Assembly: GCA_030753015.1 (NCBI GenBank)
Contig: JASMDC010000044.1
Span: forward strand, 1 to 29,941
Source: Candidatus Undinarchaeales archaeon
Lineage (GTDB): Archaea; SpSt-1190; JASMDC01
DNA: 29,941 nucleotides
Direction: 5' to 3'
In this document: positions 5,648 to 19,931 of the stretch, piece after piece
Layout of the letters: each line of letters begins with the position of its first letter
How positions within the stretch are numbered: the stretch's first letter is position 1
Made by a program: the position numbers and the translations under genes
The notes under the pieces: model-generated
Seen by the model: only the letters and a program-made list of their open reading frames with translations
Databases searched by the model: none
Told to the model about the DNA's origin: nothing

Positions 5648-7431
5648 ACGGACAGCCCGCCACTTTCCTGTTGCTCGCCATCCTCCTCGCGGGCTGTTCC
5701 TCTACACCTCAGCCCTCCGGAGCCGATCCCACGGCCACCGCCACAATCGTTCCCTCACCGACGTCACTCCCCTCCCCCCGAGCATGGAAATGCGAGGGGC
5801 TCAGCTCTGGCGTGGACCGCTCCATATGCCTCCTCGCCATGGCCAGGTCACGTGCCCACACGGGTGGCACGTGGGCCGTTAGCCTGTGCGAGGCGCTAAC
5901 CATCGAACCCTTCCGCAAGGAGTGCGTCGATCAGGTGCTCCCCGCCACCCCGCCCTGGAGCGCTCCCGTTCTCCAGCGGCTGTGCGCGCTCGACGAGTCC
6001 CGAGAGGGATGTACTGCGCTGGCAGAGGCCAGGGCGACCGGGGACCCGTCCCGATGCCCGTCCCTGGACACGCATATCGGCAGGGGTTGTGTGATGACCG
6101 TGGCAAGGGAACTGGCGATGGCGGGCGACCAGCGAGCGGGCGCAGCGTGCACCGTGTTCGAGGATCCCTTCTTCGTCGCCCGTTGCGCACGAGCCGCGGC
6201 TCGTGCCGCTGTACCGGACCACCCTGAACTGGCCCGGCAGGTCTGTGCCCCGGTCCTCGATGCAATCTTTCACTTCCACTGCATTCAAGGGGCCGCGCTG
6301 CTCGCAGGCTCGACCGACGCGGTACAAGCACTGTGCGACGACGTCAATTTCACAGTCTCGCACACCAGATGTCTCATAGACGCTCTCGCTCGCACGCGGC
6401 TGGCAATCCACACGAACGTGAGCATCCCCGTGTGCCGCTTGTCACCGGAGTGGGAGTCGAAGTGCACCGCTGACGTCGCCACCCGGGTAGCCGTCGAGGA
6501 CCACGACCCGGTCGCTGACCTGTGCGCCGGGCTGGAGGATGGCGCGGACTGCGCAGTGGCCGTCGTACGGGTCATCGGCCGCACCGACCTCGAGGCCGCC
6601 ACGGCCCTGTGCGACCGCTTCGCCACGGGGACCTTCGTCCATGACAACTGTATCGCTGCTGCTGTCTCATCGTCCCCCTGCACCGATCCCGCGTTATGCG
6701 CGGACGCGTGCGCTGGTGCATCCACGCCAGTCGAGCGTGACGGCTGCCTGCTCTCCATCATGGTCCGGGTCGAGCCGAACGCATGGCAGGACGTCTGCAA
6801 AAGGGCCGAATCGGAGGTGACACGGCAGGTGTGCACGGCGGCATCCGGAGTGGTGGCGGGCGATGATGGCGCGACCACCTGCGGCGGCCTCCCGGACCGA
6901 AGGGACCGGGAGGCGTGCTTCGGGATCATCGTACCGAACATCGCTCCCGACGGCCTCGCACTTCTGGCGGACGCTTGTGCTGCATTGGACCCTCCCTCCC
7001 CCGCGTGCCTAACGGCCATTGCCACCGAGAGAGCGCGCCGCCGCTTGCCCGAACCCGCCGCCCCCTGCCTCTCGCTCCAGGAGACCGCTGCCCGGGACTC
7101 CTGCCTCCTCGAATCGTTCGCCGAGACCATCGGTCACGATGTCACTGCAGCGCGTGCGATGTGCGATCTGTGCGGTGACGGACCGGAGCACGACATGTGC
7201 ATGGCCGCGGCCGTAGCTGCCGACCTAGCTCCCGAGGCCCTGCCCGTGGCCCTGGACGTCTGCGATGGCCTCGAGCTCTCGGAAGAAACGGACAGCTGCA
7301 GGTTCGGGGTGGCGCGCGCTCTTGCTGCCAACGATCCCGTGATGGCGGCCGAGGTGTGCGAGCACGTCATCAGTGTGTTCTGGCGGGACAAGTGCTCCAC
7401 GGTCGCCGCGGACCATCGAGAGAGTGACTGA
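5644..7431 (+). CDS. Cys-rich repeat lipoprotein (about 18 C-x8-12-C helical repeats)
   Basis: Lipobox LLAGC, then a P/T/S linker, then repeats such as ALCDRFATGTFVHDNCIAAAV and DVCDGLELSEETDSCRFGVA. Start is GTG 5644 (GTGA overlap) or ATG 5632. Confidence 0.8.
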   Translation: MNGQPATFLLLAILLAGCSSTPQPSGADPTATATIVPSPTSLPSPRAWKCEGLSSGVDRSICLLAMARSRAHTGGTWAVSLCEALTIEPFRKECVDQVLPATPPWSAPVLQRLCALDESREGCTALAEARATGDPSRCPSLDTHIGRGCVMTVARELAMAGDQRAGAACTVFEDPFFVARCARAAARAAVPDHPELARQVCAPVLDAIFHFHCIQGAALLAGSTDAVQALCDDVNFTVSHTRCLIDALARTRLAIHTNVSIPVCRLSPEWESKCTADVATRVAVEDHDPVADLCAGLEDGADCAVAVVRVIGRTDLEAATALCDRFATGTFVHDNCIAAAVSSSPCTDPALCADACAGASTPVERDGCLLSIMVRVEPNAWQDVCKRAESEVTRQVCTAASGVVAGDDGATTCGGLPDRRDREACFGIIVPNIAPDGLALLADACAALDPPSPACLTAIATERARRRLPEPAAPCLSLQETAARDSCLLESFAETIGHDVTAARAMCDLCGDGPEHDMCMAAAVAADLAPEALPVALDVCDGLELSEETDSCRFGVARALAANDPVMAAEVCEHVISVFWRDKCSTVAADHRESD

Positions 7432-7444
7432 GAATAAGAGTGGA

Positions 7445-7519
7445 TGGGGCCGCCCGGATTTGAACCGGGGTCGCGGGCTCCCAAAGCCCGAAGGATGGAC
7501 CAAACTACCCAACGGCCCC
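7445..7519 (-). tRNA. tRNA-Pro (anticodon TGG)
   Basis: GGGGCCG acceptor stem; anticodon arm CGGGC-TT-TGG-GA-GCCCG; T-arm CCCGG-TTCAAAT-CCGGG; discriminator A at 7445. CCA is not encoded in register. Confidence 0.97.
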
Positions 7520-7525
7520 AAAGAT

Positions 7526-7632
7526 TGGTAGCCCCGCCCGGAATCCCGCGCCCCGTCAAATCTGGCGGGACGGTTCGAACCAGGGTCAGCGGCTCCAAAG
7601 GCCGCCATGATTGGCCGCTACACCACGGGGCT
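7526..7632 (-). tRNA. tRNA-Gln (anticodon TTG) with a 31-nt intron at position 59/60 (7543-7573); CCA encoded
   Basis: AGCCCCG/CGGGGCT acceptor stem (A1-T72, typical of archaeal Gln). Anticodon arm GCGGC-CT-TTG-GA-GCCGC. T-stem CCTGG/CCGGG. The T-loop TTCGAA^T is interrupted by an insert that forms a BHB motif. Confidence 0.95.
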
Positions 7633-7654
7633 GGCGGAGGAGAGTAGGGTTGCT

Positions 7655-7662
7655 TATTTAAA
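7655..7662. promoter_or_regulatory. TATA box shared by the tRNA-Gln/Pro pair (-) and nfeD (+)
   Basis: TATTTAAA (TTTAAATA on -) lies 23 nt from the tRNA-Gln 5' end and 26 nt from ATG 7688. Confidence 0.65.
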
Positions 7663-7687
7663 GCTTGTTCCATTCATCCATCCGACC

Positions 7688-8353
7688 ATGGGAAGGATGC
7701 ATTTTGTACTTCTTTTGTGTATTCTGTTCGCCCCCGCCATTGCTGTGGACTGTTCTGTGCTCACCGGCCAGGACGCTTGCCGTGATGCGCGGTGCGTGTG
7801 GGTGAACAATACCTGCGCTACGTGCAACGACCTGACCGAGAGCGGGTGCACTCTCGCCAGTGACGCCTGCACGTGGGACAAGGGCGCATGCACGCCCCAA
7901 CCCCCCTTGGACGCCACCCTTACATGGGTGATCCTTGGAGCAGTGTTCCTGGTACTGGAGATCTTCACACCGGGGATCTTCTTCATCCTGTTCGGGGTGT
8001 CGTCGTTCATCGTGGCGGCAGCCGTGGGTATCGGCTTGATCAGCGGCACTGCCCTTGGCGTACAGACACTTGTATTCCTACTGACCTCTATCGTGCTCCT
8101 CGCTTTCGTGCGACCCATGTTCAACGTCGTCACTGTTGACACTGGCGAGCGCTTTGGTGTAGAGGCCTTCGTGGGGAAGGTGGGCACCGTCACCGAGGAT
8201 ATCGAGCCCGAGGGTGACAAGGGAAAGGTAAAGGTAACAGGAGAGGAGTGGCGGGCCGATGCCGACATGCCCCTGGAGAAGGGGACCAAGGTCGAAGTCA
8301 TCGAGCTGAAGTCCAACACCCTCATCGTGAAGGTATATGAAAAGGAGGAATGA
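7688..8353 (+). CDS. nfeD: NfeD-like (YbbJ-type) membrane protein with a signal peptide and an extra N-terminal Cys-rich domain
   Basis: WVILGAVFLVLEIFTPGIFF TM motif and C-terminal OB-fold VGKVGTVTE...GKVKVTGEEWRA. Lies directly upstream of an SPFH gene. Start is ATG 7688 or 7697. Confidence 0.88.
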   Translation: MGRMHFVLLLCILFAPAIAVDCSVLTGQDACRDARCVWVNNTCATCNDLTESGCTLASDACTWDKGACTPQPPLDATLTWVILGAVFLVLEIFTPGIFFILFGVSSFIVAAAVGIGLISGTALGVQTLVFLLTSIVLLAFVRPMFNVVTVDTGERFGVEAFVGKVGTVTEDIEPEGDKGKVKVTGEEWRADADMPLEKGTKVEVIELKSNTLIVKVYEKEE

Positions 8354-8356
8354 GAT

Positions 8357-9265
8357 ATGGTTGATCTATTGACCGCAATAGTGCTCTTAGTGATTATCGT
8401 TGCCATCATAGGCACGAAGGCCTTGAAGATCGTGAAACCCTACGAGAAGGCGCTCATCGAGCGGATGGGCCGGTACCAGTATACGGCCGGGTCCGGTCTG
8501 ACGACAATCATCCCCTTCGTAGACACGATCAAGAAGGTGGACATGCGTGAGACGGTCGTCGACGTTCCACCTCAGGACGTTATCACCAAGGACAACGTGG
8601 TGGTCACGGTCGATGCGGTAGTGTACTACCAGGTCACCGAACCCAAGGCAGTGGTGTACAACGTCGGGCAGTTCAACCTCGCCTGTACCAAGCTGGCACA
8701 GACCAACCTGAGGAACATCATCGGCGACCTCGAACTGGACCAGACGCTGACCAGTCGCGAGCGTATCAACACGAGCCTTCGCGCAATCCTGGACGAGGCC
8801 ACTGACAAGTGGGGCGTCAAGGTCAACCGCGTGGAGATCCAGAAGATCGACCCGCCCGCCGACGTCACCGAGGCCATGCACAAGCAGATGAAGGCCGAGC
8901 GAGAGAAGCGCGCTGCCATCCTCGAGGCCGACGGCCAGAAGCAGTCCCGCATCCTCGAGGCAGAGGGTCAGAAGGAAGCGCAGATCCGCCGGGCAGAAGG
9001 TGAGGCCGAGGCCATCAAGCAGGTGGCGCTCGCTGAGCGCGACAAGTTCATCTACGAGGCACAGGGTAAGGCACAGGCACTGGCAACGGTGTTCGCCGCT
9101 ATCAAGCAGGCGCAGGTGGACAAGGACATCCTCTCTATCCAGTACCTCGATACCCTGCGCACGGCCCTGGCAACGAACTCCAAGTTCGTCATCATGCCCC
9201 TGGAGTTCTCAGAGCTCCTCAAGGGCCTGAAGGGCATGGGCGGTACCGGCGAGCTGCTCAAGTAG
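8357..9265 (+). CDS. SPFH/band 7 stomatin-like protein (QmcA/YbbK type)
   Basis: N-terminal TM helix; motifs VDMRETVVDVPPQDVITKDNV, AQTNLRNIIG, WGVKVNRVEI and AEREKRAAILEADG. SD AGGAGG upstream. Confidence 0.95.
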   Translation: MVDLLTAIVLLVIIVAIIGTKALKIVKPYEKALIERMGRYQYTAGSGLTTIIPFVDTIKKVDMRETVVDVPPQDVITKDNVVVTVDAVVYYQVTEPKAVVYNVGQFNLACTKLAQTNLRNIIGDLELDQTLTSRERINTSLRAILDEATDKWGVKVNRVEIQKIDPPADVTEAMHKQMKAEREKRAAILEADGQKQSRILEAEGQKEAQIRRAEGEAEAIKQVALAERDKFIYEAQGKAQALATVFAAIKQAQVDKDILSIQYLDTLRTALATNSKFVIMPLEFSELLKGLKGMGGTGELLK

Positions 9266-9277
9266 AAATACGAGCAC

Positions 9278-9305
9278 GCCCCCTCCTCTTCTCGGGGGAG
9301 GGGGC
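9278..9305. terminator. GC-rich hairpin between convergent genes, possible bidirectional terminator
   Basis: GCCCCCTCCTCT-tctc-GGGGGAGGGGGC forms a 12-bp stem with two G-T pairs. Confidence 0.55.
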
Positions 9306-9347
9306 CAGTACTCATTCTCACTCCAGGATTCTTGATATGCTGGCTTT

Positions 9348-10102
9348 TCAGAGGAGTCCCTTGTCGTGGCTCTCATAATAGTCGACGAGCCCCGTGATGA
9401 GAGGGGACGTACGGATCGAGTGACCACGCTTCATTGCACACTTGAGGTCGCGGGCCATTACTGAGAGTTCGTTGTCCAGTACCGCCCGACCACCGAGGTC
9501 CTCCTCGAGGCGATGGTGGTGCTTGGCGGCCCCCCTCACGACCACATGCAGTCGACGTAGCTCCTCCACGTAGTTGCGATAGGGTACGAGGGCGGGAGTG
9601 TCGGCAAGACGAAGCCCCTCAGCGAGCGCATCGATGCCATCCGCGGCCGCGGGAAGGACCGACCTGTCCCCGTCCTTGATTGTCGTCACGAACGCGGAGA
9701 GGACCGTGTTCAAGATGGCCAGGAACTCTTCCTTGGTCTCCGGGATGCCCCGGTAGTAGAGGTGGGCTTGGAATATCCCGAAGCCCATGAAGAAAGGTGC
9801 GACCATACATACACCATCGAAGAGCTCTCCCCAGTCGATCCCTACCTCGCTCATCTCATCGAATTGTGCGAACAAGATGACCGGGCCGGTCAGTAGGATT
9901 AGCGCGGCCGCCGCGCCGACGGTCCCCCCATCGGCGAACACGTAGAAGTGCTCATGTAGAACTGCTGACTCAGACGGAGGTTAGATCTAATATCACTCCA
10001 TCGACCTTTCTCCTCGAGATCCATCAATCCCTCGGAGATGGTGATCGTGGCTCCACGAACGAGGGCGAACCTATGCTTCCCGATATACCCTTTATTCTTC
10101 AC
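9348..10102 (-). pseudogene. decayed third copy of the tandem six-TM membrane protein family
   Basis: The GTG 10102 start (SD GGGGAGGGG) gives VKNKGYIGKHRFALVRGATITISEG, homologous to the paralog N-termini. More than 200 codons are missing internally. A 14-nt imperfect tandem duplication (9939-9966) shifts the frame before FYVFADGG. The C-terminal half (LAEGLRLADTP..YRNYVEEL, GHSIRTSPL) is intact. Confidence 0.8.
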
Positions 10103-10139
10103 GGCCCCTCCCCCACACACTCGTCCAGTTCGACGTTCG

Positions 10140-11501
10140 TTAGTCCTCTTTCTCGATATGTGCCAGCATCGCCCTCAACTTGGGCGACACCCTGACGCTC
10201 TGCCCGCTCTCGAGGACGGTCTTCAGGTCCTTGGCCATGACGATCAGCTCGCGCTTCAGCTGGCGAGGATCCTCGAACTTTGGCTCCAGCTTGTAGTAGT
10301 GCTCGGCTGTGCGCTGAACGATGTCCTCCAGAAGGCAGAGGTTGTCCATGTACCCGTGATAGGCCATGAGCTCAGGATCCATGGCGATGCGCAGCCCGTC
10401 GGTGAGGTCGTCCAGGTCCGCACCGGCCTGCTCCAGTGCTGCACGGTCGTCTTCCTTTATCGCCTTGGCCATGTTTACGATGATCGTGTCCCGGAGGTGG
10501 GCGAACTGCATCAGGTTGGTGGGGGCCATTATGTAGTCCAGCTGTGCGTAGTAGGCCCCCAGTGCTATGAGCATGGGAGCTATCATGGACACGCGGTCCT
10601 GGACTGCCCCCCATTTCGAGGTCGACTCGGCGGTGAGGGGGATGAGCACTGCAGTCAGTAGGACGACCACCACGGCACCGAGCGCGCCACCATCAGCGAG
10701 CACGTAGAACTGCTTCCGGGCGTATTTGTACAGGAGCCATGATGCCAGAATACAGACCGCGATGATCGTGAGGCCGTTGTCGTGCACGGTGACGGGGATG
10801 AGGAGCCCGATCAGAGCGAGGATGTTCCATATGCCCCGATAGACTATGAAGAGGATGAACGAGAGTGTGAGCATCTCGGCGGGAGGGTCGTACACGGAGG
10901 GGACCGAGGCCTGGAGGACCCATCCCATGGCCAGGAACGCGACTACGTAGTACGCGCTCACGAGCCAGCCCAGCCAGCCCCCTGGCGCTCCCGTGCCCGT
11001 GCGCACCTCGATTGCGACGGCAAGGACGAGCAGGCTGAGCACAACGGCAGCTCCGCGGGTATCGAGCAGCGGTGTTTCCCGGGGCGTCACCTCGATCGGG
11101 TAGGTGACCACCTCCTCGGCCCGCTGATCGGCCGTGACATAATTGGGTCCGTCCTCGAACAGCTGCACACCTCGGTAGTAAAGGGATTTCTTTCCCTGGA
11201 AGGCGATGCGCAGCACGTGCTGACCCTCCCCACTCCCCTCGTGGCACGTGGCGGGCTCCTCCCTCCAGCCCCGGAAGTACCGTACCTCCTCCTCTGACCA
11301 GAGGAGCTTGTCCGGGAGCTTGTCGGAGGGGAACCAGAGCGTGATATCGCCGTAACGCTCCTCCACGTACGCCGTCCTCCCCCGGTAGCTTATGATGTTC
11401 CAGATCCAGCCGGACATATCGTCCTTGGGATTGTTGGTTACACTGACCTTTCCCGAAAGGAGGTCGAACGCGTCCTTCCCGATCCGTCCGTGTTCACGCA
11501 T
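10140..11501 (-). CDS. hypothetical membrane protein (soluble N-domain, about 6 TM, helical C-domain), paralog 2
   Basis: 453-aa ORF with SD GAGGAG. Shares LYxxGVQLFExGxNYxTA, FYxLxDGG, DLxDGLRIAxDP, YMDNL and RVSPxL with its neighbour. Confidence 0.85.
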   Translation of the reverse strand: MREHGRIGKDAFDLLSGKVSVTNNPKDDMSGWIWNIISYRGRTAYVEERYGDITLWFPSDKLPDKLLWSEEEVRYFRGWREEPATCHEGSGEGQHVLRIAFQGKKSLYYRGVQLFEDGPNYVTADQRAEEVVTYPIEVTPRETPLLDTRGAAVVLSLLVLAVAIEVRTGTGAPGGWLGWLVSAYYVVAFLAMGWVLQASVPSVYDPPAEMLTLSFILFIVYRGIWNILALIGLLIPVTVHDNGLTIIAVCILASWLLYKYARKQFYVLADGGALGAVVVVLLTAVLIPLTAESTSKWGAVQDRVSMIAPMLIALGAYYAQLDYIMAPTNLMQFAHLRDTIIVNMAKAIKEDDRAALEQAGADLDDLTDGLRIAMDPELMAYHGYMDNLCLLEDIVQRTAEHYYKLEPKFEDPRQLKRELIVMAKDLKTVLESGQSVRVSPKLRAMLAHIEKED

Positions 11502-11516
11502 GGTGCTTTCTCCTCG

Positions 11517-12929
11517 TCAGTCCGCTTCAGTGTCCGCGTGCTCCACAAGGCCCCGCAGGATCGGGGACACCCGGATGCACATGCCCTGCTCCATGGCGTA
11601 GCGCAGGTCGTGGGTCATGATCTGGATCTCGCGAGCGAGGTCGGCGGGATCGTCGAAGTCCCGCTCGAGCCGGTCGTACTGCTCGGCCGCGCCCTTCACG
11701 ACGTTCTCGAGCAGGCGGAGGTTGTCCATGTAATTACGGAACGCGGCCAGGTTGGGGTCCTTTGCGATGCGCAGGCCGTCGGCCAGGTCGTTGAGCTCCT
11801 CGCCCGCCTCCCGCAGCGCCTCCCGGTCGCCGCTGCTGACCGTCCGGTCCATGAGCGTCGCGATCTCGTCGCGGAGCCGGAAGAACTGTTTTTCCGTGTC
11901 GGGCGCCTTGCGGTAGTCCTTCCACTTGTAATAAGCGCCGACGACGATGATGAAGGGCGCGAGCATGGATATGGTGTTCAGCGCCTCGTGCCACCACTCG
12001 AGGTCCTCCTCGATGGCGACGTTCCAGATGAAGGCGAGTATCAGGACGAGCAGCGCTCCTGCGGAACCGCCGTCGGTGAGCATGTAGAAGCGCTTGCGGA
12101 TAATGCGGAACATGAGGAACGAGAGCACAATCGATGCTGCGATGAGCGAGAACCCGAAGTGCTCGATGGGCAATAGGAACTCCTTACTGAGCGCAGAGAA
12201 TATGTTCTCCACGCCCTTGAAACCTATATAGAGCACGAACGAGCAGGCGAGGATCTCGGCGGGGATGTCGTAGTCGGTGGGGGTGCCTGCGATGAGCACG
12301 TAACCCATGGACACGAAGCACATCATGTACCACAAGGCCACCAGCACTTGTGTCCATCCGGGAAGCGCTCCCGCTCCTGCCTGGAGCTCGAGCCAGAGGG
12401 CGACAAGGGCGATCCCCAGTATCATGAGCGCGCCCCATGTCCCCACGAGCACCGCCTTCCGGGCCAGCACCTCGATAGTGTAGTGGTCCAGGTCCTCGGC
12501 GCGGGCATGGGCGGTGGCGTAGTTCTCCCCGTGCTCGAACAGCTGCACTCCTGTGAAGTAGAGGGGCTTGCGGTCGGGGAACACGATGCGGAGAACGTCC
12601 TCGCCGTCCCCCTCCCCCTCCGAGCAAGCGGCGGTGCCATCCTCCTCCCCGCCGGTCCTCATCTTCCGTGGATCCCAGAGGCCCTCCAGACGGCCGGAGA
12701 GGTCACGCACTGCCTCCTCGCGCCATGCGACGTGGGCAGGCAATCGTTCGACCGGGGTCCAGACGGTCAGCTCGCCTTTGTACTCCTCGACGAACACCGT
12801 CTTCCGGTCCCACTCGATAGCGGTCCAGCCCCAGCTCTCTTGGTCCTCTCCTTCCCCCTCGGTCAGGGTGATGGAACCGTCGGGGACGATTGTGTACCGT
12901 TTCCGATTGATCTGACCCTGTTCATTCAC
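11517..12929 (-). CDS. hypothetical membrane protein (about 6 TM), paralog 1, 470 aa
   Basis: GTG 12929 overlaps the udp stop (GTGA). The N-terminus VNEQGQINRKRY aligns with paralog 2 MREHGRIGKDAF, and the motifs are the same. Confidence 0.85.
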   Translation of the reverse strand: MNEQGQINRKRYTIVPDGSITLTEGEGEDQESWGWTAIEWDRKTVFVEEYKGELTVWTPVERLPAHVAWREEAVRDLSGRLEGLWDPRKMRTGGEEDGTAACSEGEGDGEDVLRIVFPDRKPLYFTGVQLFEHGENYATAHARAEDLDHYTIEVLARKAVLVGTWGALMILGIALVALWLELQAGAGALPGWTQVLVALWYMMCFVSMGYVLIAGTPTDYDIPAEILACSFVLYIGFKGVENIFSALSKEFLLPIEHFGFSLIAASIVLSFLMFRIIRKRFYMLTDGGSAGALLVLILAFIWNVAIEEDLEWWHEALNTISMLAPFIIVVGAYYKWKDYRKAPDTEKQFFRLRDEIATLMDRTVSSGDREALREAGEELNDLADGLRIAKDPNLAAFRNYMDNLRLLENVVKGAAEQYDRLERDFDDPADLAREIQIMTHDLRYAMEQGMCIRVSPILRGLVEHADTEAD

Positions 12930-13762
12930 GTCCGAAGCCCCGGGTACCAGTACCTCTTCCCGCTCTTCTCCTTCTCGTCGTCCATCTCCTTGAGGATGCG
13001 CACGGCCTCCACGGCCACCTTCGCGCACTCCTTTTCGCCCGTGACCTTCAGTTCGTCGCGAGGACGGTTGGCGAACACGGTGCACACGCAGCCTGCACGC
13101 AGCCCGAAGAGGCTTGTGAGGGTGTAGAGCGCGGCGGCCTCCATCTCGAAGTTGAGCACGCGGGCCTTCTGGAGATCAACGACCAGGTTGTCCATCCAGC
13201 TCTGCCAGAACCCGTTGTACCCGGGCCTTCCCTGGCCGCAGTAGAAGGTGTTCGTGGACGCCGTGATCCCCACATGGTAGGGGATGTTCAGGCATTCTGC
13301 GGCCTGGATGAGGGCCAGTGTCACCTCGTACGACCCGACGGCGGGGTACTCTGGCCGCACGTAGTCCTTGCTCGTCCCCTCGAGACGGACCGCAGCCGAA
13401 GTGATGATCATGTCACCGATGTCGATGTCCTCCTGGATGGTCGCCGTGGAGCCCACGCGGATGAACGTGTCCACACCGACAGCTGCCAGTTCCTCGATGG
13501 CCACGCCCAGGGGGCTGGGGCCCAGACCCGACGATACGGTAGAGACGGGGATGCCCTTGAACTTGCCGGTGAAGGTGCGGTACTCGCGGTGGTAGGCCAC
13601 TTCACGCGCCTCGTCGAAGAGCTCGGCGATGACCGGTACCCGCCCGGGGTCCCCGGGAAAGAGTACGTACCGCGCGACGTCGCCCGGTTTGCACTGGATA
13701 TGATACTGGATGCCCTCCTCGGTCTGCGGCCGGGTGGCCTCCTTCATCTTGAGCGTGCCCAT
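12926..13762 (-). CDS. udp: uridine phosphorylase (NP-I family)
   Basis: Motifs QYHIQCKPGDVARYVLFPGDPGRV, HREYRTFTG, FIRVGST, FYCGQGR and NFEMEAA. Start ATG 13762 lies about 25 nt from TTTTATAAA (alternative start 13747). Confidence 0.92.
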   Translation of the reverse strand: MGTLKMKEATRPQTEEGIQYHIQCKPGDVARYVLFPGDPGRVPVIAELFDEAREVAYHREYRTFTGKFKGIPVSTVSSGLGPSPLGVAIEELAAVGVDTFIRVGSTATIQEDIDIGDMIITSAAVRLEGTSKDYVRPEYPAVGSYEVTLALIQAAECLNIPYHVGITASTNTFYCGQGRPGYNGFWQSWMDNLVVDLQKARVLNFEMEAAALYTLTSLFGLRAGCVCTVFANRPRDELKVTGEKECAKVAVEAVRILKEMDDEKEKSGKRYWYPGLRT

Positions 13763-13783
13763 ACGGCTGACAGGGCGTCCAAG

Positions 13784-13792
13784 TTTTATAAA
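13784..13792. promoter_or_regulatory. TATA box between divergent udp and smc
   Basis: Near-palindromic TTTTATAAA in the 65-bp intergenic gap. Confidence 0.6.
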
Positions 13793-13827
13793 GGATGGCG
13801 GCACCACTACCCTTTTAGGCCCCCTCC

Positions 13828-16800
13828 ATGCCACGTATCACGAACATCACTATGAAGGGCTTCAAATCCTTCGCGCGGAAGACGTCCGTGCAGTTCCCGG
13901 TGGACTTCAGTGTGGTCGTGGGGCGCAACGGTTCGGGGAAGTCGAACATCGTCGACGCCCTCTGCTTCGTTCTCGGGACCGCCCGCTCAAAGGTGATGCG
14001 GGTGAAGAACTCCGCCGAGCTCATCTTCAACGGGGGCAAGGACGGCAGGGCATCCGACAACGCGGAGGTGACGGTCACCTTCGACAACCAGGACGCCGGA
14101 TTCCGGATCGACAGCGATGCCGTGAAGGTCAGCCGGCTCGTGAAATCCAACGGCCAGGGTGTCTACCGGCTCAACGACAAGCGCGTCACCCGGCAGGAGA
14201 TCCTGGAGGCTCTCTCGCACGCCCGGATCAATCCCGATTCCTACAACATCGTGCTCCAGAACGACGTGACCCGGGTCATCGATATGAGCGCCCGGGAACG
14301 GCGCGGGTTCATCGACGACATCGCTGGCATCGCCTCCTACGAGGAGCGAAAGGTGAAGGCGTTGCGCGAACTGGATAGCGTCGAGCGCCGGATGGAGGAG
14401 ATCCAGATCAGGCTCACAGAGATGCGTCGCATCCTCGACGAGATGCGCGAGGAGCGGGACAAGGCCGTGAAGCTCCGCCAGCTCAAGGAGGAGAAAGGGC
14501 TGGTGGAGGCGACGCTGTGTCGCTCGCGTGTGAAGCTCGACGAAGAACGCATCACCCGCCAGCAGAAGCACATCGCCGAGCTCGAGGAGAAGCGGTCCAA
14601 GATCCTCTCCCTGCGCCAGGAGGAGGAGGGTACACTGTCCACGAAGCAGGCCAAGCTCTCCCAGGTCGAGAAGCGGCTCCATGATGAGGGCTACGGCGAC
14701 CAGGTCCGGCTGACCGAGAGGCGCGCCACCATCGACGGCGAGATCACACTCCTTAAAGAACGGCGCAAGGGCAAGGAGGAGGAGCTGTCGGCCAAGCAGC
14801 AGCGCCTCAAGGACCTCGTCCACGAGCTGGCCGAGAACACCAAGGGTCTCGGGCAGGCGAAGAAGGCGCTCATCGAGCTGGGGCTGCGGGAGAAGTCGCT
14901 TGCCGACGAGATCGAGCAGGTGGGAGGCCGCATCCGCAAGCACCGCAAGGACCATGACTCGGAGTGGGCCTCGCTTGAACAGGAGCGTGAAGTGCTCGAG
15001 CGCGAGGAGCGGGAGCTTTCCGCGCGCGAGACGACGCTCAGAGAAGAGCTTGCCAAGATCCGGGCGACCCTCGAGGGCAGCACCGGCAAGCGTGTGCGCC
15101 TCGACGACCTGCGCAAGAACAAGACAGGTCTCGAGAAGGAGGAGGTCGAGCTCACGACCGGTATCTCCACGAAGGGCGAGGAGGCAGCACGCCTCACCAG
15201 GGCACTGAGCGACACGAAGCACGCTCTTGAGAAGAAGGAGCAGCAGTACTCCCGCGTGCGAGACAAGCTCGAGCGGCAGGCACGTGTCAGCCCACCCGTA
15301 GAAGCGGTGCTCCGGGTCGGTATCTCCGGTGTCGTGGGCAGGGTCTACGACCTCATCGAGTTCTCCCCTGAGCACGCTGCTGCCATCATGGCCGCTGCCG
15401 GGGCGCGGATCAACGCCGTTGTCGTGGAACGCGACACGGTCGCCGTGGAATGTGTCCAGTTCCTCAAGAAGAAGCGCATCGGCAAGGCACGGTTCCTCCC
15501 AATGGACAAGCTCCGGTCGCCCCCCCATTCCAGAGAGGCGGAGGGTGTCGGGCGTGAAGCGATGGGGCTCCTGCGCGACCATGTCCGCTGCGAGCCACAC
15601 CTAGAGCCCATGCTCCGCTACGTGCTAGGGAACACGGTGCTCGTCGAGACCATCGAGGAGGCCCGCCGCCTCGGCTTCGGCCGGGCACGGATGGTGTCCC
15701 TTGACGGCGACGTGGCAGAGTCCTCCGGTGCGGTGATGGGGGGCCACAACAAGACGGAACGTATCACCGAGGACATCGGTGCGCTCCGCAGCGACATCGG
15801 GCGCATGAGCGGGAACGTCGCCAAGATGGAGCAGCACCGGGACGTGCTGGAGGAGGAGCTCATCCAGATGCGCCAACGGCGCGCCGAGGTGAAGATCAGC
15901 CTCGAGACCATCAGGGCAGACCTGAGCGACATGGAGGGAGTGGACGCCGCCACCCTCGAGAAGCGCGAGAGCGAGCTCGACAAGGAGCTCAGCTCCGTGA
16001 CAAAGGGCGTTGAGGTCCACCGCGAGAAGCTCGCCAATATTCAGAAGAAGGTCAGTGCCCGTAATACGGAGGTGGAGAACGAGGCGCTCGACAAGGAAGA
16101 GGCGCGTCTGACCGAGCTCCGGGATCAACTGCGACAAGTGGGCCAGGAGCGCGCCGTCAAGGAGCGGCAGAAGCGGCACGAGTTCGAGGCCAACATCCAG
16201 ATGTACAAGACGACCCTGCGCGAGGAGCAGAAGGCCACCGTCACGCTCAAGAGCGAGCTCGCTGCAGTTGACAAGGACCTTGCTGGCAAGGAAGGTGAGC
16301 TTGCGAAGGTCGCAGCTGAACTTACCGAGATGGACGAGAAGCTCCAGACCTTCATCGCCGAGCAAGAGGCTGTCCGGGGCGACATCCGTTCGTCCGAGAA
16401 GCGCATCGCAACGCTCGATCGTGAGTCGGACGGCCTGTCCATCACCCTGGAGAACGACAGCGAGAAGCTCGGGGAGATGGAGGGCGAACTCGGGGAGCTG
16501 AGGCGAGAGCTGGGGCAGTTCTCATTGTTCCTCTCCGACGACGAGGACCAGACGGTCACTCGTCTGGACGCCAGGTTCAAGTCCGTGGAGCGACGCATCG
16601 AGCGCCTGGGCGGTGTCTCCGAGTACATGCTAGAGCGGTACGAGGAGCGCGAGAAGGAGTACAACGGGAGCATCGAGCGCAAGACCCTCCTAGAGAAGGA
16701 GAAGGAGGTCATCCTCACCACCATGGCTGAGCTGGAGGCGAAGAAGAAGGAGGTGTTCATGGAGGCCTACGTCAAGGTCAAGGACCACTACTCTGCCGTT

Positions 16801-17211
16801 ATCGGCTCCATCGAGGGCTGGTCCGGCGACCTCTCCCTGGAGAACGAGGAGGAGCCATTAGAGGGCGGCCTCGTGCTCCATGCTCATCCCAAAGGCAAGC
16901 GCCTCATCCGCCTGGAGAGCATGTCCGGCGGCGAGAAGGTGCTCACGGCACTCTCCCTCCTCCTGGCGCTGCAGAAGTTCGACGGCGCTCCTTTCCTAGT
17001 GCTTGACGAGGTGGACGCCGCTCTGGACAAGGTCAACCTCGACCGATTCACCGAGCTGCTGCGGGAGACCGCCTCGAAATCACAGCTCATCGTCATATCT
17101 CACCACAACGAGTCGCTCATGCGCACGGCCGACCAACTCATCGGCGTCTCTGCCCGGCAGGGTCAGTCCATGCTCGTGGGGGTGAACCTCAATTCCTACT
17201 CAGTCGAGTGA
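13828..17211 (+). CDS. smc: chromosome segregation protein SMC
   Basis: GFKSF, Walker A GRNGSGKSN, Q-loop VLQND, long coiled coils, hinge (GVVGRVYDLI...VSLDGDVAESSGAVMGG), signature MSGGE, Walker B VLDEVDAALD and H-loop ISHH. Confidence 0.97.
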   Translation: MPRITNITMKGFKSFARKTSVQFPVDFSVVVGRNGSGKSNIVDALCFVLGTARSKVMRVKNSAELIFNGGKDGRASDNAEVTVTFDNQDAGFRIDSDAVKVSRLVKSNGQGVYRLNDKRVTRQEILEALSHARINPDSYNIVLQNDVTRVIDMSARERRGFIDDIAGIASYEERKVKALRELDSVERRMEEIQIRLTEMRRILDEMREERDKAVKLRQLKEEKGLVEATLCRSRVKLDEERITRQQKHIAELEEKRSKILSLRQEEEGTLSTKQAKLSQVEKRLHDEGYGDQVRLTERRATIDGEITLLKERRKGKEEELSAKQQRLKDLVHELAENTKGLGQAKKALIELGLREKSLADEIEQVGGRIRKHRKDHDSEWASLEQEREVLEREERELSARETTLREELAKIRATLEGSTGKRVRLDDLRKNKTGLEKEEVELTTGISTKGEEAARLTRALSDTKHALEKKEQQYSRVRDKLERQARVSPPVEAVLRVGISGVVGRVYDLIEFSPEHAAAIMAAAGARINAVVVERDTVAVECVQFLKKKRIGKARFLPMDKLRSPPHSREAEGVGREAMGLLRDHVRCEPHLEPMLRYVLGNTVLVETIEEARRLGFGRARMVSLDGDVAESSGAVMGGHNKTERITEDIGALRSDIGRMSGNVAKMEQHRDVLEEELIQMRQRRAEVKISLETIRADLSDMEGVDAATLEKRESELDKELSSVTKGVEVHREKLANIQKKVSARNTEVENEALDKEEARLTELRDQLRQVGQERAVKERQKRHEFEANIQMYKTTLREEQKATVTLKSELAAVDKDLAGKEGELAKVAAELTEMDEKLQTFIAEQEAVRGDIRSSEKRIATLDRESDGLSITLENDSEKLGEMEGELGELRRELGQFSLFLSDDEDQTVTRLDARFKSVERRIERLGGVSEYMLERYEEREKEYNGSIERKTLLEKEKEVILTTMAELEAKKKEVFMEAYVKVKDHYSAVIGSIEGWSGDLSLENEEEPLEGGLVLHAHPKGKRLIRLESMSGGEKVLTALSLLLALQKFDGAPFLVLDEVDAALDKVNLDRFTELLRETASKSQLIVISHHNESLMRTADQLIGVSARQGQSMLVGVNLNSYSVE

Positions 17212-18067
17212 CGACGTTGCCTGGCTGGAGGAGCGGGACCTGGGCTCCGACCTCACGCGGGCGGAGATCATGGAGCTGTTCGGATTCGATCCGTCCAAGC
17301 GCTACGTGGTGCGCCTGGCCGACCGGTGGTCCGACATCGCCTTCCTGCACGAGCAGGGAGTGGTGCAGCTGCGGGAGAAGGGCGAGCCCCAGGGGACATA
17401 CTATCTCTCCCCCGAGGACCTGCGGGTGCGCAACGAGCCCAAGCTCTATGGCGCGGTGTTCTCGTCCCTCTCGGACCAGTACCGAACCATCGCCAGCGCG
17501 TTCTCCATCGCCCAGCGGATCGCTGAGAGCCTGGGGCATGCCATCTCTCTCAAGGACTTCCTCAACCTTGTCACCCTCCTTGAAAAGGAGGTGACACTCA
17601 AGCAGGCGGCCGTGCACGTCCCCGGCCACGGGACGGTCACTGAGACCGAGCGGCGGACCATGTTCGCCGAGCTCAAGCGCCTGCGCTACCAGATCCTCGA
17701 GCGGATCTACGAGGTGCGGCACGCGAGGGAGGACTTCGACCACGCCATGGAGCGACTTGGTGAGGGCGACGACATCCACTTCGCTGCAGAGCTGCAGCGC
17801 ACGAACCTCATGCGCATGGAGCGTGCCGAGCGCGAGCTCGAGCAGTCCATCAAGGAGTACAACACGATGGACGAGACCCTCTTCACCCAGGAGGGGGCGT
17901 TCATCATGGACCCTGCCGGTGAGGACATCGTGGTCGAGGTGTACCGCATGCCCGAGAAGGTGCCGGAACAGAAGGACATGCCCCCGCCCAAGCCTGTGCA
18001 GAACACGCCTGTCCCGACCATGGAGCGCCACCGGCCCCTGTCGCTCGAAGCGCAGCCGCCGACATAG
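17192..18067 (+). CDS. hypothetical protein coupled to smc (possible winged helix plus coiled coil); start uncertain (ATT 17192 or ATG 17270)
   Basis: The frame is open from 17186 with host-like codons (DDVAWLEERDLGSDLTRAEI) before the first ATG. SD-like GGGGGTGA lies 6 nt before ATT 17192. No ScpA DPWxID motif. Confidence 0.8.
   Translation: MPTQSSDDVAWLEERDLGSDLTRAEIMELFGFDPSKRYVVRLADRWSDIAFLHEQGVVQLREKGEPQGTYYLSPEDLRVRNEPKLYGAVFSSLSDQYRTIASAFSIAQRIAESLGHAISLKDFLNLVTLLEKEVTLKQAAVHVPGHGTVTETERRTMFAELKRLRYQILERIYEVRHAREDFDHAMERLGEGDDIHFAAELQRTNLMRMERAERELEQSIKEYNTMDETLFTQEGAFIMDPAGEDIVVEVYRMPEKVPEQKDMPPPKPVQNTPVPTMERHRPLSLEAQPPT
18011..18061 (+). repeat. 51-bp direct repeat, copy 1 (3' end of the post-smc gene; attL-like)
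   Basis: GTCCCGACCATGGAGCGCCACCGGCCCCTGTCGCTCGAAGCGCAGCCGCCG is 48/51 identical to 19183-19233. Confidence 0.95.
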
Positions 18068-18105
18068 ACGGTCACCCTTGGCCTAAGCGTGGGTGCGGTT
18101 CCGGG

Positions 18106-18164
18106 TTTGTAATTTTATAAACAGAAAGATATAAATTACGCCCATCTGTATATATAATTACAAA
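18106..18164. promoter_or_regulatory. 20-bp imperfect inverted repeat over the HEPN-MNT promoter, probable operator
   Basis: TTTGTAATTTTATAAACAGA (18106-18125) and TCTGTATATATAATTACAAA (18145-18164) are complementary at 18/20 positions, with a 19-nt spacer. The repeat contains the TATA elements. Confidence 0.7.
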
Positions 18165-18173
18165 GCGATTGTC

Positions 18174-18524
18174 ATGAAAAGCGAGGATCATCTGCGGAAG
18201 GCCCGGAGGCTAGAAGCGTCAGCAGGGAAGCTCATCTCCTCGAGTGGTGATGACAGCGAACTCGCATGCGAGGGATTCTACGGTGCTGCGCAGCATTTCT
18301 TATCGCATGGTCTCGAACGGCGCCTCGGGCGTCACATCGACACTCATGAGGGCATGAGCAGGCTCTTGAGAAGGAACGACTTCAACGAGATCGCTGTGGC
18401 GTTCGATAGGCTCGACATCATCCGTCACGGCCAGTGGTACGGCAGAAAAGGGAACGGTGATGTTGCCAAGGGAGCTTCCGCCCTCGTATCCCGCATCAGG
18501 AGGTGGGCGGTTGAGGAAGGATGA
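18174..18524 (+). CDS. HEPN domain protein (putative toxin of a HEPN-MNT pair)
   Basis: Helical 116 aa: HLRKARRLEASA, ACEGFYGAAQH, THEG and RHGQWY (Rx4Y variant). Adjacent to an MNT gene. Confidence 0.8.
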   Translation: MKSEDHLRKARRLEASAGKLISSSGDDSELACEGFYGAAQHFLSHGLERRLGRHIDTHEGMSRLLRRNDFNEIAVAFDRLDIIRHGQWYGRKGNGDVAKGASALVSRIRRWAVEEG

Positions 18525-19110
18525 CAGGAAGGCCATCGACGAGTTCGTCGAGCGGGCCCGGACTCTGTCTGGCCTTGAGGCCATCATGCTCTTCGGTTCC
18601 CTCGCTAGGGGTGAAGAGGACAAGCGTTCAGATATAGATCTACTCGTTATCGTGAAGGTGGGTGCTCAGGAGGCCCTTGTTGAGCCCCTTATGGATATCG
18701 CTTCGAGCGTTGATACGCACCGTCCAGTGCGTCCTGTGATCACCGATCTCAGCGATTATGATCCGGACTTTCTTCAAAACGCGTTACGGGAGGGGATAGT
18801 GCTCTTCGGTAAGGTTGTGATCTCCCCGGACACCTTGGCTCTCATGCCGTACACTATCATCTCGTACTCACTGAAGGGTATGACAGCACGCGGGAAGGTG
18901 GCCATCCACCGGGCCGTCCATGGCTACCGTGTGGAGACCAGGAAAGGGGGACGGACGTACGTCAGCGAACGTTCCGGTCTCGTGGATAAAGATGCGGTCC
19001 ACAAGCTCGGGCGCGGCGTCATCGCCCTCCCTGTGGAGGAAGCACGGGGATTCACCCGGGTGCTCGAAGAACTGGGGGCATCGTACTCGATGAGAAAGGT
19101 GTGGTTGTAG
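18511..19110 (+). CDS. minimal nucleotidyltransferase (MNT) with a C-terminal Cas2/VapD/PaaX-like extension
   Basis: IMLFGSLARGEEDKRSDIDLLVI is the GS...DxD motif. TTG 18511 lies 5 nt after SD AGGAGGTG. About 85 extra C-terminal residues. Confidence 0.85.
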   Translation: MRKDDRKAIDEFVERARTLSGLEAIMLFGSLARGEEDKRSDIDLLVIVKVGAQEALVEPLMDIASSVDTHRPVRPVITDLSDYDPDFLQNALREGIVLFGKVVISPDTLALMPYTIISYSLKGMTARGKVAIHRAVHGYRVETRKGGRTYVSERSGLVDKDAVHKLGRGVIALPVEEARGFTRVLEELGASYSMRKVWL

Positions 19111-19117
19111 CTTTCAT

Positions 19118-19148
19118 TACAGATTCGTTAATCCCTTAATAATCTGTA
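19118..19148. repeat. inverted repeat downstream of the MNT gene
   Basis: TACAGATT-N15-AATCTGTA, perfect 8-bp arms with an inner TTAA/TTAA. Confidence 0.6.
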
Positions 19149-19182
19149 TTTCTAACTACATACTCCCACCATGATCTCAAGA

Positions 19183-19233
19183 GTCCCGACCATGGAGCGC
19201 CATCGGCCCCTTTCGCTGGAAGCGCAGCCGCCG
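19183..19233 (+). repeat. 51-bp direct repeat, copy 2 (attR-like)
   Basis: Same sequence as 18011-18061 with three third-position changes (CAC/CAT, CTG/CTT, CTC/CTG). Confidence 0.95.
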
Positions 19234-19291
19234 GCGTGTATAAGTGTTTTAAATCCGAGGGCCCAATACTACGACAGTGGTAGGGCAAGTT

Positions 19292-19510
19292 ATGCGCATG
19301 GGCAGGTCCTTACCTCTCCTGGCTCTCGTGCTGGCCCTCATCCTTTCCAGTACCACGGCCGTCGAGAGCTGCTCCGAGGGCGGTTACTGCCCCGAACGCA
19401 CGCTGACCTTCACAAAGCACGTCATCGCGGACAAGCTCGATCAACCGAACTCGGTGGCCTCGGCGGACCTGGACGGCGACGGCGTCCTGGACGGCGGCCA
19501 GCGCCAATAG
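19292..19510 (+). pseudogene. truncated secreted FG-GAP/VCBS-repeat protein (5' fragment)
   Basis: Signal peptide RSLPLLALVLALILSSTTA, then FTKHVIADKLDQPNSVASADLDGDGVLD. The ORF ends within the first repeat. Confidence 0.7.
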
Positions 19511-19879
19511 GTCCAGTCCTTGTGCACGGGCTGCGGCCAACACTTCACCGAACAGGACGCGCCCGACACCATTTCCCCGGAACGACGGGTCCACCGCCAG
19601 GTCGTGGACGTACACGCACTCGGGATCGGGCACGGGCATGTCCTGCAGAAAGTTGATGGGCGCCACCCAACCGGACCGCGCCGGATGGAACACGATGTAG
19701 CCTGCGACGACACCGCCCACATCTAGCACGTGGCATCCATCCTGATGCATGACAATCTTGTGGAGGAAGGCCTCGGCGCTCTCCAGGTAGCACGACGCGT
19801 AGCATTGGAACTGGATGGCCAATATCCTGGGTATGTCGGAGTGGGTCATGGGGCGCACGGTGCCGTTCTGCAGGTCCAC
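19481..19879 (-). pseudogene. GNAT-family N-acetyltransferase, 3'-truncated (ORF reads on to 19310 through the antisense of the FG-GAP fragment)
   Basis: VYVHDLAVDPSFRGNGVGRVL is acetyl-CoA motif A. The expected A..FW/Y...GF motif after ALAAVQDA is absent. Start is GTG 19879 (or TTG 19900). Confidence 0.7.
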
Positions 19880-19931
19880 GTACCAATACTCGACCGCCAA
19901 CCATAAAAGGCTAGCGGGCCCTCCGCTGACC

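Follow-up and report, generated by a model that had tools for sequence, protein, structure and literature searches.

In a 29,941-nt contig from a Candidatus Undinarchaeales archaeon (JASMDC010000044.1 of assembly GCA_030753015.1; the whole of this stretch is called the window below), we find a two-gene cassette, encoding a HEPN-fold protein and an MNT-type nucleotidyltransferase, lodged in the 3′ end of a protein-coding gene, here called gene X, which adjoins smc on its downstream side. The insertion is bracketed by a 51-nt direct repeat, one copy of which serves as the working end of gene X while the other is its orphaned former end, and the same site is empty in the closest available relative. 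As to how the cassette arrived, the explanation we tentatively favor, at slightly under an even chance of being right, is that it is an integrase-free islet flanked by att sites and formed by site-specific recombination, with the enzyme supplied in trans or since lost along with a larger island. We favor this explanation because the repeat has a length typical of att cores, the target is 3′-distal, the interrupted reading frame is restored, and cis-mobilizable elements (CIMEs) of this general design are known in bacteria.

The direct repeat lies at 18011–18061 (copy 1, attL-like) and 19183–19233 (copy 2, attR-like) of the forward strand, 1172 nt apart from start to start. A repeat finder returned the pair as a single family with 94% identity, a script counted 48 of 51 matching positions, and chance alone would give about 6e-16 such repeat pairs across the window. 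In the frame of the open reading frame (ORF) at 17270–18067, both copies encode one and the same 17-residue peptide, VPTMERHRPLSLEAQPP, in register with each other, and the three mismatches between them (CAC/CAT, CTG/CTT, and CTC/CTG, copy 1 given first) are all synonymous third-position differences. The 1121 bp enclosed by the two copies hold only two genes in the ORF list, arranged as a 44-nt G+C-rich stretch, a 68-nt A+T-rich stretch with a palindrome, the 116-aa ORF, the 199-aa ORF, and a 72-nt A+T-rich spacer with a hairpin. Both repeats have sharp boundaries beyond which similarity does not tail off. An initial annotation of this DNA, which had reported the length and spacing of the repeats, their shared peptide, and the three synonymous mismatches, was correct in each of these respects; it was also right that A+T-rich spacers and a gene pair make up the insert, but overlooked the 44-nt G+C-rich stretch. 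This stretch forms the insert-side arm of the left junction (18062–18105, forward strand, GC 0.64), and in short-word BLAST it showed no similarity to the locus of the closest relative or to the remaining window. Its first six bases, ACA TAG, close the reading frame of gene X: copy 1 supplies the last 17 sense codons but one, and the insert supplies the final threonine codon and the stop, giving a C-terminus of VPTMERHRPLSLEAQPP-T-stop (PPT-stop). The replacement 3′ end suggested by the annotation is thus present and amounts to one codon plus a stop.

A genome scan queried with the upstream SMC protein returned six loci, five of which have SMC proteins only 27–30% identical and are uninformative. 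The sixth, L001, comes from a Candidatus Undinarchaeota metagenome-assembled genome (MAG), the closest relative available, whose SMC shares 94% amino acid identity. BLASTN aligned window positions 10146–18061 with L001 positions 6319–14237 at 89% identity and then aligned window positions 19183–19283 with L001 positions 14187–14286. In L001 the 51 nt occur once (14187–14237): the sequence on their left is homologous to that ending at window 18010, before copy 1, and the sequence on their right to window 19234–19283, past copy 2. The L001 locus is the empty site and the window carries an insertion at the end of gene X, which bears out both the insertion that the annotation had claimed and the empty allele by which it proposed to check it. 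An assembly artefact or chimeric join might be suspected, given that the window, like its nearest relative, probably comes from a MAG and that P0002, the one close homologue of the first cassette protein, sits on a contig of 1244 bp, a sign that assemblers break around the element. However, the repeat copies differ at three positions and so are not a k-mer overlap, the sequence departs from and rejoins the L001-homologous locus in exact register, and gene X retains a proper stop, and we regard an artefact as highly improbable.

Gene X of L001 ends in ...EAQPPA (GCG TGA TAA), and the window sequence after copy 2 reads GCG TGT ATA A, with one extra T; the BLAST alignment with L001 places the disrupted ancestral last codon and stop at 19234–19245 (forward strand), with a single 1-nt gap. 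The only protein relative of gene X, P0001, also has a C-terminus of PPA. L001 and P0001 share a PPA-stop ending, and removal of the 1-nt insertion would give copy 2 that ending too. Copy 2 is therefore the ancestral end of the gene, now non-coding and orphaned with its stop already broken, and copy 1 is the working end; copies 1 and 2 differ from the single L001 copy at 2 and 3 of 51 positions, respectively. Across its 266 codons, gene X of the window differs from that of L001 by 62 synonymous and 12 non-synonymous codons, with 69 of the 266 third positions changed. Non-coding status ever since the two lineages split should have left about 6–7 changes in copy 2, spread over all codon positions, and it has just two private ones, both at third positions; the insertion therefore appears to postdate most of that split. 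This shortfall also bears on the reverse polarity, in which the cassette would be ancestral and both L001 and the organism of P0001 would have lost it, scar-free, through recombination between the 51-nt repeats. Direct repeats of 51 nt do permit precise deletion, and the polarity is drawn from two relatives only, but an ancestral cassette would have to be squared with the two private third-position substitutions in copy 2, with the unameliorated third-codon-position G+C content (GC3) of the cassette, and with two independent relatives that end PPA-stop; we consider it quite improbable. A reading frame of 161 codons at 19171–19656, whose ATG lies in the right end of the insert and which runs in frame through copy 2, is open because the old gene X stop is broken. 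It spans a stub gene and the antisense strand of a GNAT gene, both described below, has no family match, and is probably not a gene.

The insert is compositionally foreign. GC is 0.50–0.58 over the insert and 0.60–0.67 in the flanks, and GC3 is 0.667 for the HEPN-fold gene and 0.685 for the MNT gene, compared with 0.857 for smc, 0.895 for gene X, and 0.752 for the U32 gene. Within the repeat, L001 can serve as outgroup for the mismatches. At position 21, copy 1 and L001 have C and copy 2 has T; at position 30, copy 1 and L001 have G and copy 2 has T; at position 36, copy 1 has C and copy 2 and L001 have G. As 27% of random single changes in this segment are synonymous, the probability that both changes private to copy 2 would be synonymous is 0.075, and for all three mismatches it is 0.021. 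These three sites mildly favor a core derived from a related gene X, with mismatches acquired when each copy was still part of a coding sequence. Of the three changes, two are private to the copy that is now non-coding, which favors pre-existing orthologous differences over post-insertion decay by about 9:1 on a rough estimate that is not decisive. The initial annotation had argued for coding selection on both copies and for a cassette that came from a related genome. The synonymy of all three mismatches agrees with the first claim, which at P 0.021 on three sites is weakly supported; the second finds agreement in the orthologue-like differences of the repeat, while the cargo has a GC3 unlike that of a close relative's chromosome, and this low GC3 argues against an origin of the cargo genes in the core genome of a close relative.

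Differences of this kind are also what import from a relative would leave behind. Under such a scenario, a donor cassette located directly downstream of the donor's own gene X would have entered through homology within gene X on the left and, on the right, an illegitimate join 51 bp short of the resident stop, or else a small circle bearing a 51-bp gene X fragment would have entered by a single host-mediated crossover of the Campbell type. Import of this sort needs no integrase and makes the repeat a by-product, in keeping with the lack of a recombinase in the cassette or the window. The mismatches are all synonymous and have an orthologue-like density (3 of 17 third positions, compared with 69 of 266 for gene X of the window and of L001), and the 44 nt that follow copy 1 have a host-like GC of 0.64, as donor intergenic DNA might. 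However, ACATAG matches the ancestral GCGTGA at only 2 of 6 positions directly after 51 nt with 48 matches, which is abrupt for orthologous DNA, and a sliding-window comparison with L001, of low power with one relative, shows no unusually divergent tract upstream of copy 1. A stretch of 51 bp is also short for a homologous crossover, and the GC3 of the cargo is unlike that of the host clade. Taken together, we hold import by such recombination to be less likely than the att-flanked islet, to which it is the main and a serious rival.

Alternatively, the two copies could have been identical at birth, as a 51-bp target-site duplication made by transposition or break repair. The insert is indeed bracketed by a direct copy of target sequence, and the 19-nt repeat and hairpins of its inner flanks could be the ends of an element. 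On the other side, our repeat search of the window found no terminal inverted repeats linking the two junctions, there is no transposase, and the insert immediately provides an in-frame codon and stop; both changes in the non-coding copy would also have to be synonymous by chance (P ~0.075). To our knowledge, 51 bp is far above the target duplications of insertion sequence (IS) elements or casposons. A duplication of this origin therefore seems very unlikely, and the locus does not resemble an IS element or transposon, with no inverted repeats at its junctions, no transposase, and a duplication that is 51 nt long and non-identical.

The first gene of the cassette (18174–18524, forward strand) encodes a 116-aa putative toxin, which we file as a HEPN-fold, HEPN-T-like protein on the basis of its predicted structure and its remote family, the protein having no sequence match of its own. 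Its AlphaFold (AF2) model has five helices and a pLDDT of 91.7, and the top five Foldseek matches in the PDB are all HEPN proteins: 2hsb (TMq 0.79, prob 1.00), 1ufb, 2q00, 1wol, and sacsin 3o10, with none of the matches to this model reaching E<=0.001. Among these, 2hsb is placed in HEPN-T (PF05168) and 2q00 in its PaREP1 branch, according to the classification in PMC3710099. A word-based search found one relative among 15 candidates, P0002, at 92% identity, and an exhaustive HMMER search extended the family to 70 relatives at E<=0.001, of which 28 are at E<=1e-10. In an alignment of 40 sequences (38 of the 70 that are near full-length, P0002, and the window protein), H58, R84, Y89, and G90 are invariant and H54 almost invariant. 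Seven of the 40 have a weak match to the Pfam HEPN family PF05168, the best at 1.7e-4. HEPN-T subgroups that lack the arginine, or in which the histidine is replaced, are described in PMC3710099, which also proposes a conserved C-terminal tyrosine of HEPN-T as a site of nucleotidylation. The HEPN label of the initial annotation thus holds at the level of the AF2 and Foldseek fold; the protein is invisible to Pfam and NCBIfam, and the arginine of an Rx4-6H motif is not conserved. As a separate observation, the 1244 bp reported for the contig of P0002 is close to the 1223 bp that the insert and its two repeats occupy in the window; a contig of about this size would result if an assembler broke at the repeats of a polymorphic insertion.

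The second gene (18511–19110, forward strand) overlaps the first by 14 nt and encodes a 199-aa MNT-type nucleotidyltransferase and putative antitoxin, an assignment made in the initial annotation and upheld by Pfam, by profile matches to MntA, and by Foldseek. We place its start at TTG 18511, six bases past GGAGGTG, which matches the start of 199-aa homologues. The first 100 residues form a Pol-beta-type nucleotidyltransferase domain (PF18765, 1.8e-11; PF01909, 3.5e-9), and the NCBIfam MntA model scores 38.9 bits, under its cut-off of 60. A homologue search gave 46 matches among 1183 candidates, and in an alignment of 35 sequences (34 homologues and the window protein) the GS...DxD residues G29, S30, D41, and D43 are invariant. 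The family profile matches solved MntA/MNT antitoxins, including 5yep_A (6.8e-10) and 8xeh_E (8.7e-7), among 16 PDB sequences at E<=0.01. The structural model (pLDDT 89.8) has 11 Foldseek matches at E<=0.001, of which the top ten are all MNT or minimal nucleotidyltransferases; 8xeo_B (2.6e-5) and 7bxo_E (3.7e-5) are among the matches. Residues ~113–198 (window 18811–19107) form a separate, confidently modelled alpha/beta domain that is kept in all family members of ~190–200 aa. This C-terminal domain has no PDB sequence match, and the Foldseek matches cover the nucleotidyltransferase half alone; from the model, its beta-alpha-beta-beta...alpha-beta order looks ferredoxin-like with a beta-hairpin insert.

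Searches of mobile DNA found little of the cassette. In plasmids, tblastn with the MNT protein gave 13 records, all matching its N-terminal half alone at 33–37% identity and mostly Thermus nucleotidyltransferases adjoining HEPN genes; the HEPN-fold protein and the 1223-nt DNA with both repeats had no plasmid match, and the MNT protein had none in phages. One MNT homologue, P0003, is 95% identical and has a source label of a "Methanopyri archaeon" MAG. Methanopyri and Candidatus Undinarchaeota are different kingdom-level lineages in the NCBI taxonomy, and the label reflects either a labelling problem or a very recent transfer between distant archaea.

Both spacers of the cassette are structured, as the initial annotation had noted in reporting inverted repeats within them. 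Upstream of the gene pair lies an A+T-rich palindrome with TATA-like runs (18106–18164), whose 20-nt arms at 18106–18125 and 18145–18164 are complementary at 18 of 20 positions; its DNA fold of -10.7 kcal/mol (z -4.24) was equalled by none of 200 shuffles, and we infer that it is likely the promoter/operator of the cassette. Downstream, the segment 19118–19160 combines a hairpin (19118–19148; z -4.04, with 1 of 200 shuffles as good) with one copy of a 19-nt direct repeat. The repeat pairs 18144–18162 with 19142–19160 at 16 of 19 positions, a level reached by 1/2000 and 3/2000 shuffles. The motif ACAGA-N19-TCTGT occurs on both flanks with equal spacing (18121–18149 and 19119–19147) and nowhere else in the window; alone it is not significant, given that 16 of 100 shuffles yield at least two when one mismatch is allowed, and one chance-level match is found in a further scanned locus, L002. 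The 3′ copy could act as another operator, or else as a terminator or recombinase site. The flanks had no meaningful short-word BLAST matches in the window or the six loci, a scan for bacterial-type promoters and terminators stayed at chance level, and Rfam found tRNA-Pro at 7445–7519 as the sole RNA gene of the window, with nothing in 17950–19300 at E<=1. Elsewhere in the window, at 593–981, an A+T-rich promoter with a perfect-looking palindrome, TGTAATGTTTA...TAAACATTACA, precedes a gene for a 104-aa ribbon-helix-helix protein (PF17723, 2.9e-6), a second case that shows palindromic A+T-rich promoters to be normal in this genome.

Returning to the att-flanked islet, the repeat, the empty site, the ancestral status of copy 2, the foreign composition, the folds, and the lack of a recombinase in 30 kb are established; we infer the kind of recombination, the toxin–antitoxin activity, the operator role, and addiction, and propose the following course of events. 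A circular element bearing the 51-bp core (attP) would have recombined with the 3′ end of gene X (attB), the two being identical in function, and conservative site-specific recombination would have yielded attL (copy 1) and attR (copy 2). The attL would preserve gene X, with the element arm giving one codon and a stop, and the attR would be the orphaned original end, which has begun to decay through the 1-nt insertion in its stop. The recombinase may have acted in trans from another element or vanished with the rest of a larger island, the two alternatives raised in the initial annotation, and the islet would be an archaeal counterpart of a bacterial CIME. Its translationally coupled gene pair is probably a HEPN/MNT (type VII-like) toxin–antitoxin module, in which the MNT protein would neutralize the HEPN-fold protein, possibly via nucleotidylation of the invariant tyrosine; the promoter palindrome would be an autoregulatory operator, and the pair would penalize loss of the islet.

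Several observations weigh against this proposal. Integrase, transposase, and resolvase families are missing from all 86 window ORFs of at least 110 aa that were scanned against Pfam (64 + 6 + 16), including those of the cassette, so that the annotation's description of the island as integrase-free extends to the window at large; archaeal integrated elements, in contrast, encode an integrase. The 51-nt core lacks an evident pair of recombinase-binding inverted arms. One crossover located between positions 30 and 36 would account for the mismatch pattern of the repeat, but by our count 4 of the 8 possible patterns would fit some crossover, and the three mismatches are also compatible with mutation following an in-situ duplication. 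The polarity of the insertion comes from one close genome, L001, together with the C-terminus of P0001. As for the module itself, the 116-aa protein has no match in Pfam (even at E 10), NCBIfam, PADLOC, PHROGs, or PDB sequences, and although it reads R53-HIDT-H58, a literal Rx4H, R53 varies across the 40 aligned sequences. The order of the genes, HEPN (18174–18524) and then MNT (18511–19110), differs from that of type VII systems: MNT is "almost always" 5′ of HEPN according to PMC3710099, and the HEPN-first order is also the reverse of that described in PMC4621449. No integrase-bearing element that uses the same att site was seen across the 30 kb of the window and the 23 kb of the L001 locus; the remaining window encodes core metabolism and housekeeping functions, such as pyruvate:ferredoxin oxidoreductase, CTP synthase, SMC, phosphorylase, and U32 peptidase.

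A broader version of the islet proposal is that archaeal HEPN/MNT pairs travel as minimal recombinase-free cassettes, each with a portable att site that imitates the 3′ end of a host gene and takes over its function, and that integrases borrowed from other elements insert and excise them, with the conserved 19-nt repeat and hairpin of both inner flanks serving as a handle for the enzyme or for the MNT protein with its C-terminal domain. We offer this as a speculation of low probability. If true, it would supply a concrete mechanism for the long-noted and unexplained mobility of toxin–antitoxin pairs.

Gene X (17270–18067, forward strand; 265 aa from its first ATG, with a C-terminus of ...EAQPPT-stop in the ORF list) has no match in Pfam, NCBIfam, PHROGs, or PDB sequences. 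In a set of 5.8 billion proteins, P0001 (291 aa, 96% identity) is its sole relative, the one match among 777 candidates. The upstream smc gene (13828–17211, forward strand; 1127 aa) is identified by SMC_N (1.1e-57) and SMC_hinge (2.3e-31) in Pfam, and in L001 gene X overlaps it. Position after smc, which is the only pointer, suggests a kleisin (ScpA-like) role for gene X. The "smc operon" of the initial annotation accordingly stands insofar as gene X follows smc; the operon is positional only, and gene X has no recognizable family. In the relatives, gene X begins 26–27 codons earlier, at an ATG in L001 and P0001 that is ATT in the window (window 17192–17270), and the 26 codons upstream of ATG 17270 are still in frame and conserved. 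Translation begins either at this ATT or at the internal ATG 17270, or the ATT is a sequencing error.

Two further differences separate the window from L001. In L001, gene X is followed by a gene for a 2196-aa secreted protein with Laminin_G_3, FG-GAP, pentaxin, and FGE-sulfatase domains (L001 14280–20870), of which the window retains a 77-aa N-terminal stub (19277–19510), with the junction in a repeated GACGGCGACGG-type (DxDGDG) motif. The same deletion of ~6.6 kb trims the 3′ end of a convergent GNAT gene (19310–19900), so that the Pfam match reaches 101 of 116 positions, as against 116 of 116 in L001. Located 250 bp from the cassette, it appears to be a separate event. A second presence/absence difference, besides the cassette, lies at window 9306–10145, where ~840 bp with a 197-aa ORF (9348–9941, reverse strand) correspond to ~36 bp in L001 (6283–6319), between a G+C-rich hairpin that follows a Band_7 gene and the end of the next gene. 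The 197-aa ORF has no Pfam match at E<=1e-4, and no direct repeat of at least 12 nt flanks the segment.

One close parallel to the proposed islet is bacterial. CIMEs are described as elements that keep attL and attR and have lost their integration genes (PMC6323972). Like the cassette, CIMEs such as that beside ICESt3 in Streptococcus thermophilus are flanked by attL and attR, carry no integration or transfer genes, and restore the coding sequence at a gene's 3′ end; unlike them, the cassette resides in an archaeon, measures 1.17 kb, holds two genes, and has no cognate integrase-bearing element in sight in the window or the L001 locus. The S. thermophilus elements are reportedly located at the end of fda.

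Among archaeal elements, those with tyrosine integrases (SSV-type, pNOB8-type, and cryptic) share with the cassette an att-like repeat length, a 3′-distal target in a protein gene, and an empty site that is recognized by comparison. The survey in PMC6563490 gives att sites of 29–69 bp (median 45) for crenarchaeal integrated elements and places 14 of 68 thaumarchaeal elements in 3′-distal parts of protein genes; elements in that survey are defined by their integrase, which even the smallest, at 2.6 kb, encodes. Small, recombinase-free units are also found among the dif modules of Acinetobacter plasmids, as these have been described, some of which carry toxin–antitoxin genes and rely on a host recombinase at flanking sites. 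Those modules are bounded by 28-bp Xer sites, whereas the cassette is bounded by a 51-nt gene end. Its flank palindromes depart from the 11-6-11 layout described for archaeal dif (PMC2958812): both read ACAGA-N19-TCTGT, and only the left one has 20-nt outer arms. On the evidence listed for each, we have rejected a transposon, a Xer/dif module, and an assembly artefact as accounts of this locus.

With type VII (HepT/MntA) systems, the cassette shares neighboring MNT and HEPN-fold genes that overlap and a palindrome in the promoter, and MNT of Shewanella is described as binding a promoter with palindromes (PMC4621449). Apart from gene order, the differences are that the cassette HEPN protein escapes Pfam, its family keeping HxDxH, R84, and Y89 rather than a conserved Rx4-6H, and that the cassette MNT protein has an extra domain of ~90 aa that is missing in solved MNTs. 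Our results thus draw attention to a HEPN-T-like family that profile libraries miss and that is paired in reverse order with an MNT protein bearing an extra domain.

Finally, toxin–antitoxin pairs, those of the MNT-HEPN kind in particular, are known to come and go between close strains, and MNT-HEPN modules inserted strain-specifically into otherwise syntenic operons have been reported (PMC2701414); how bare pairs enter is not addressed in the main text of that report, where "direct repeats" and "integrase" each occur 0 times. The locus described here keeps a clean footprint of such an entry, with filled and empty sister alleles, a duplicate gene end of att length, a replacement stop, and no enzyme, and it documents the acquisition of foreign genes by a DPANN-type archaeon with a very small genome. 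If further copies share the design, they would make up a class of hitch-hiking archaeal cassettes. Strain-specific MNT-HEPN insertion has precedents, and so do att-flanked, integrase-less elements; what is new is to find the two together in an archaeal unit of 1.2 kb.

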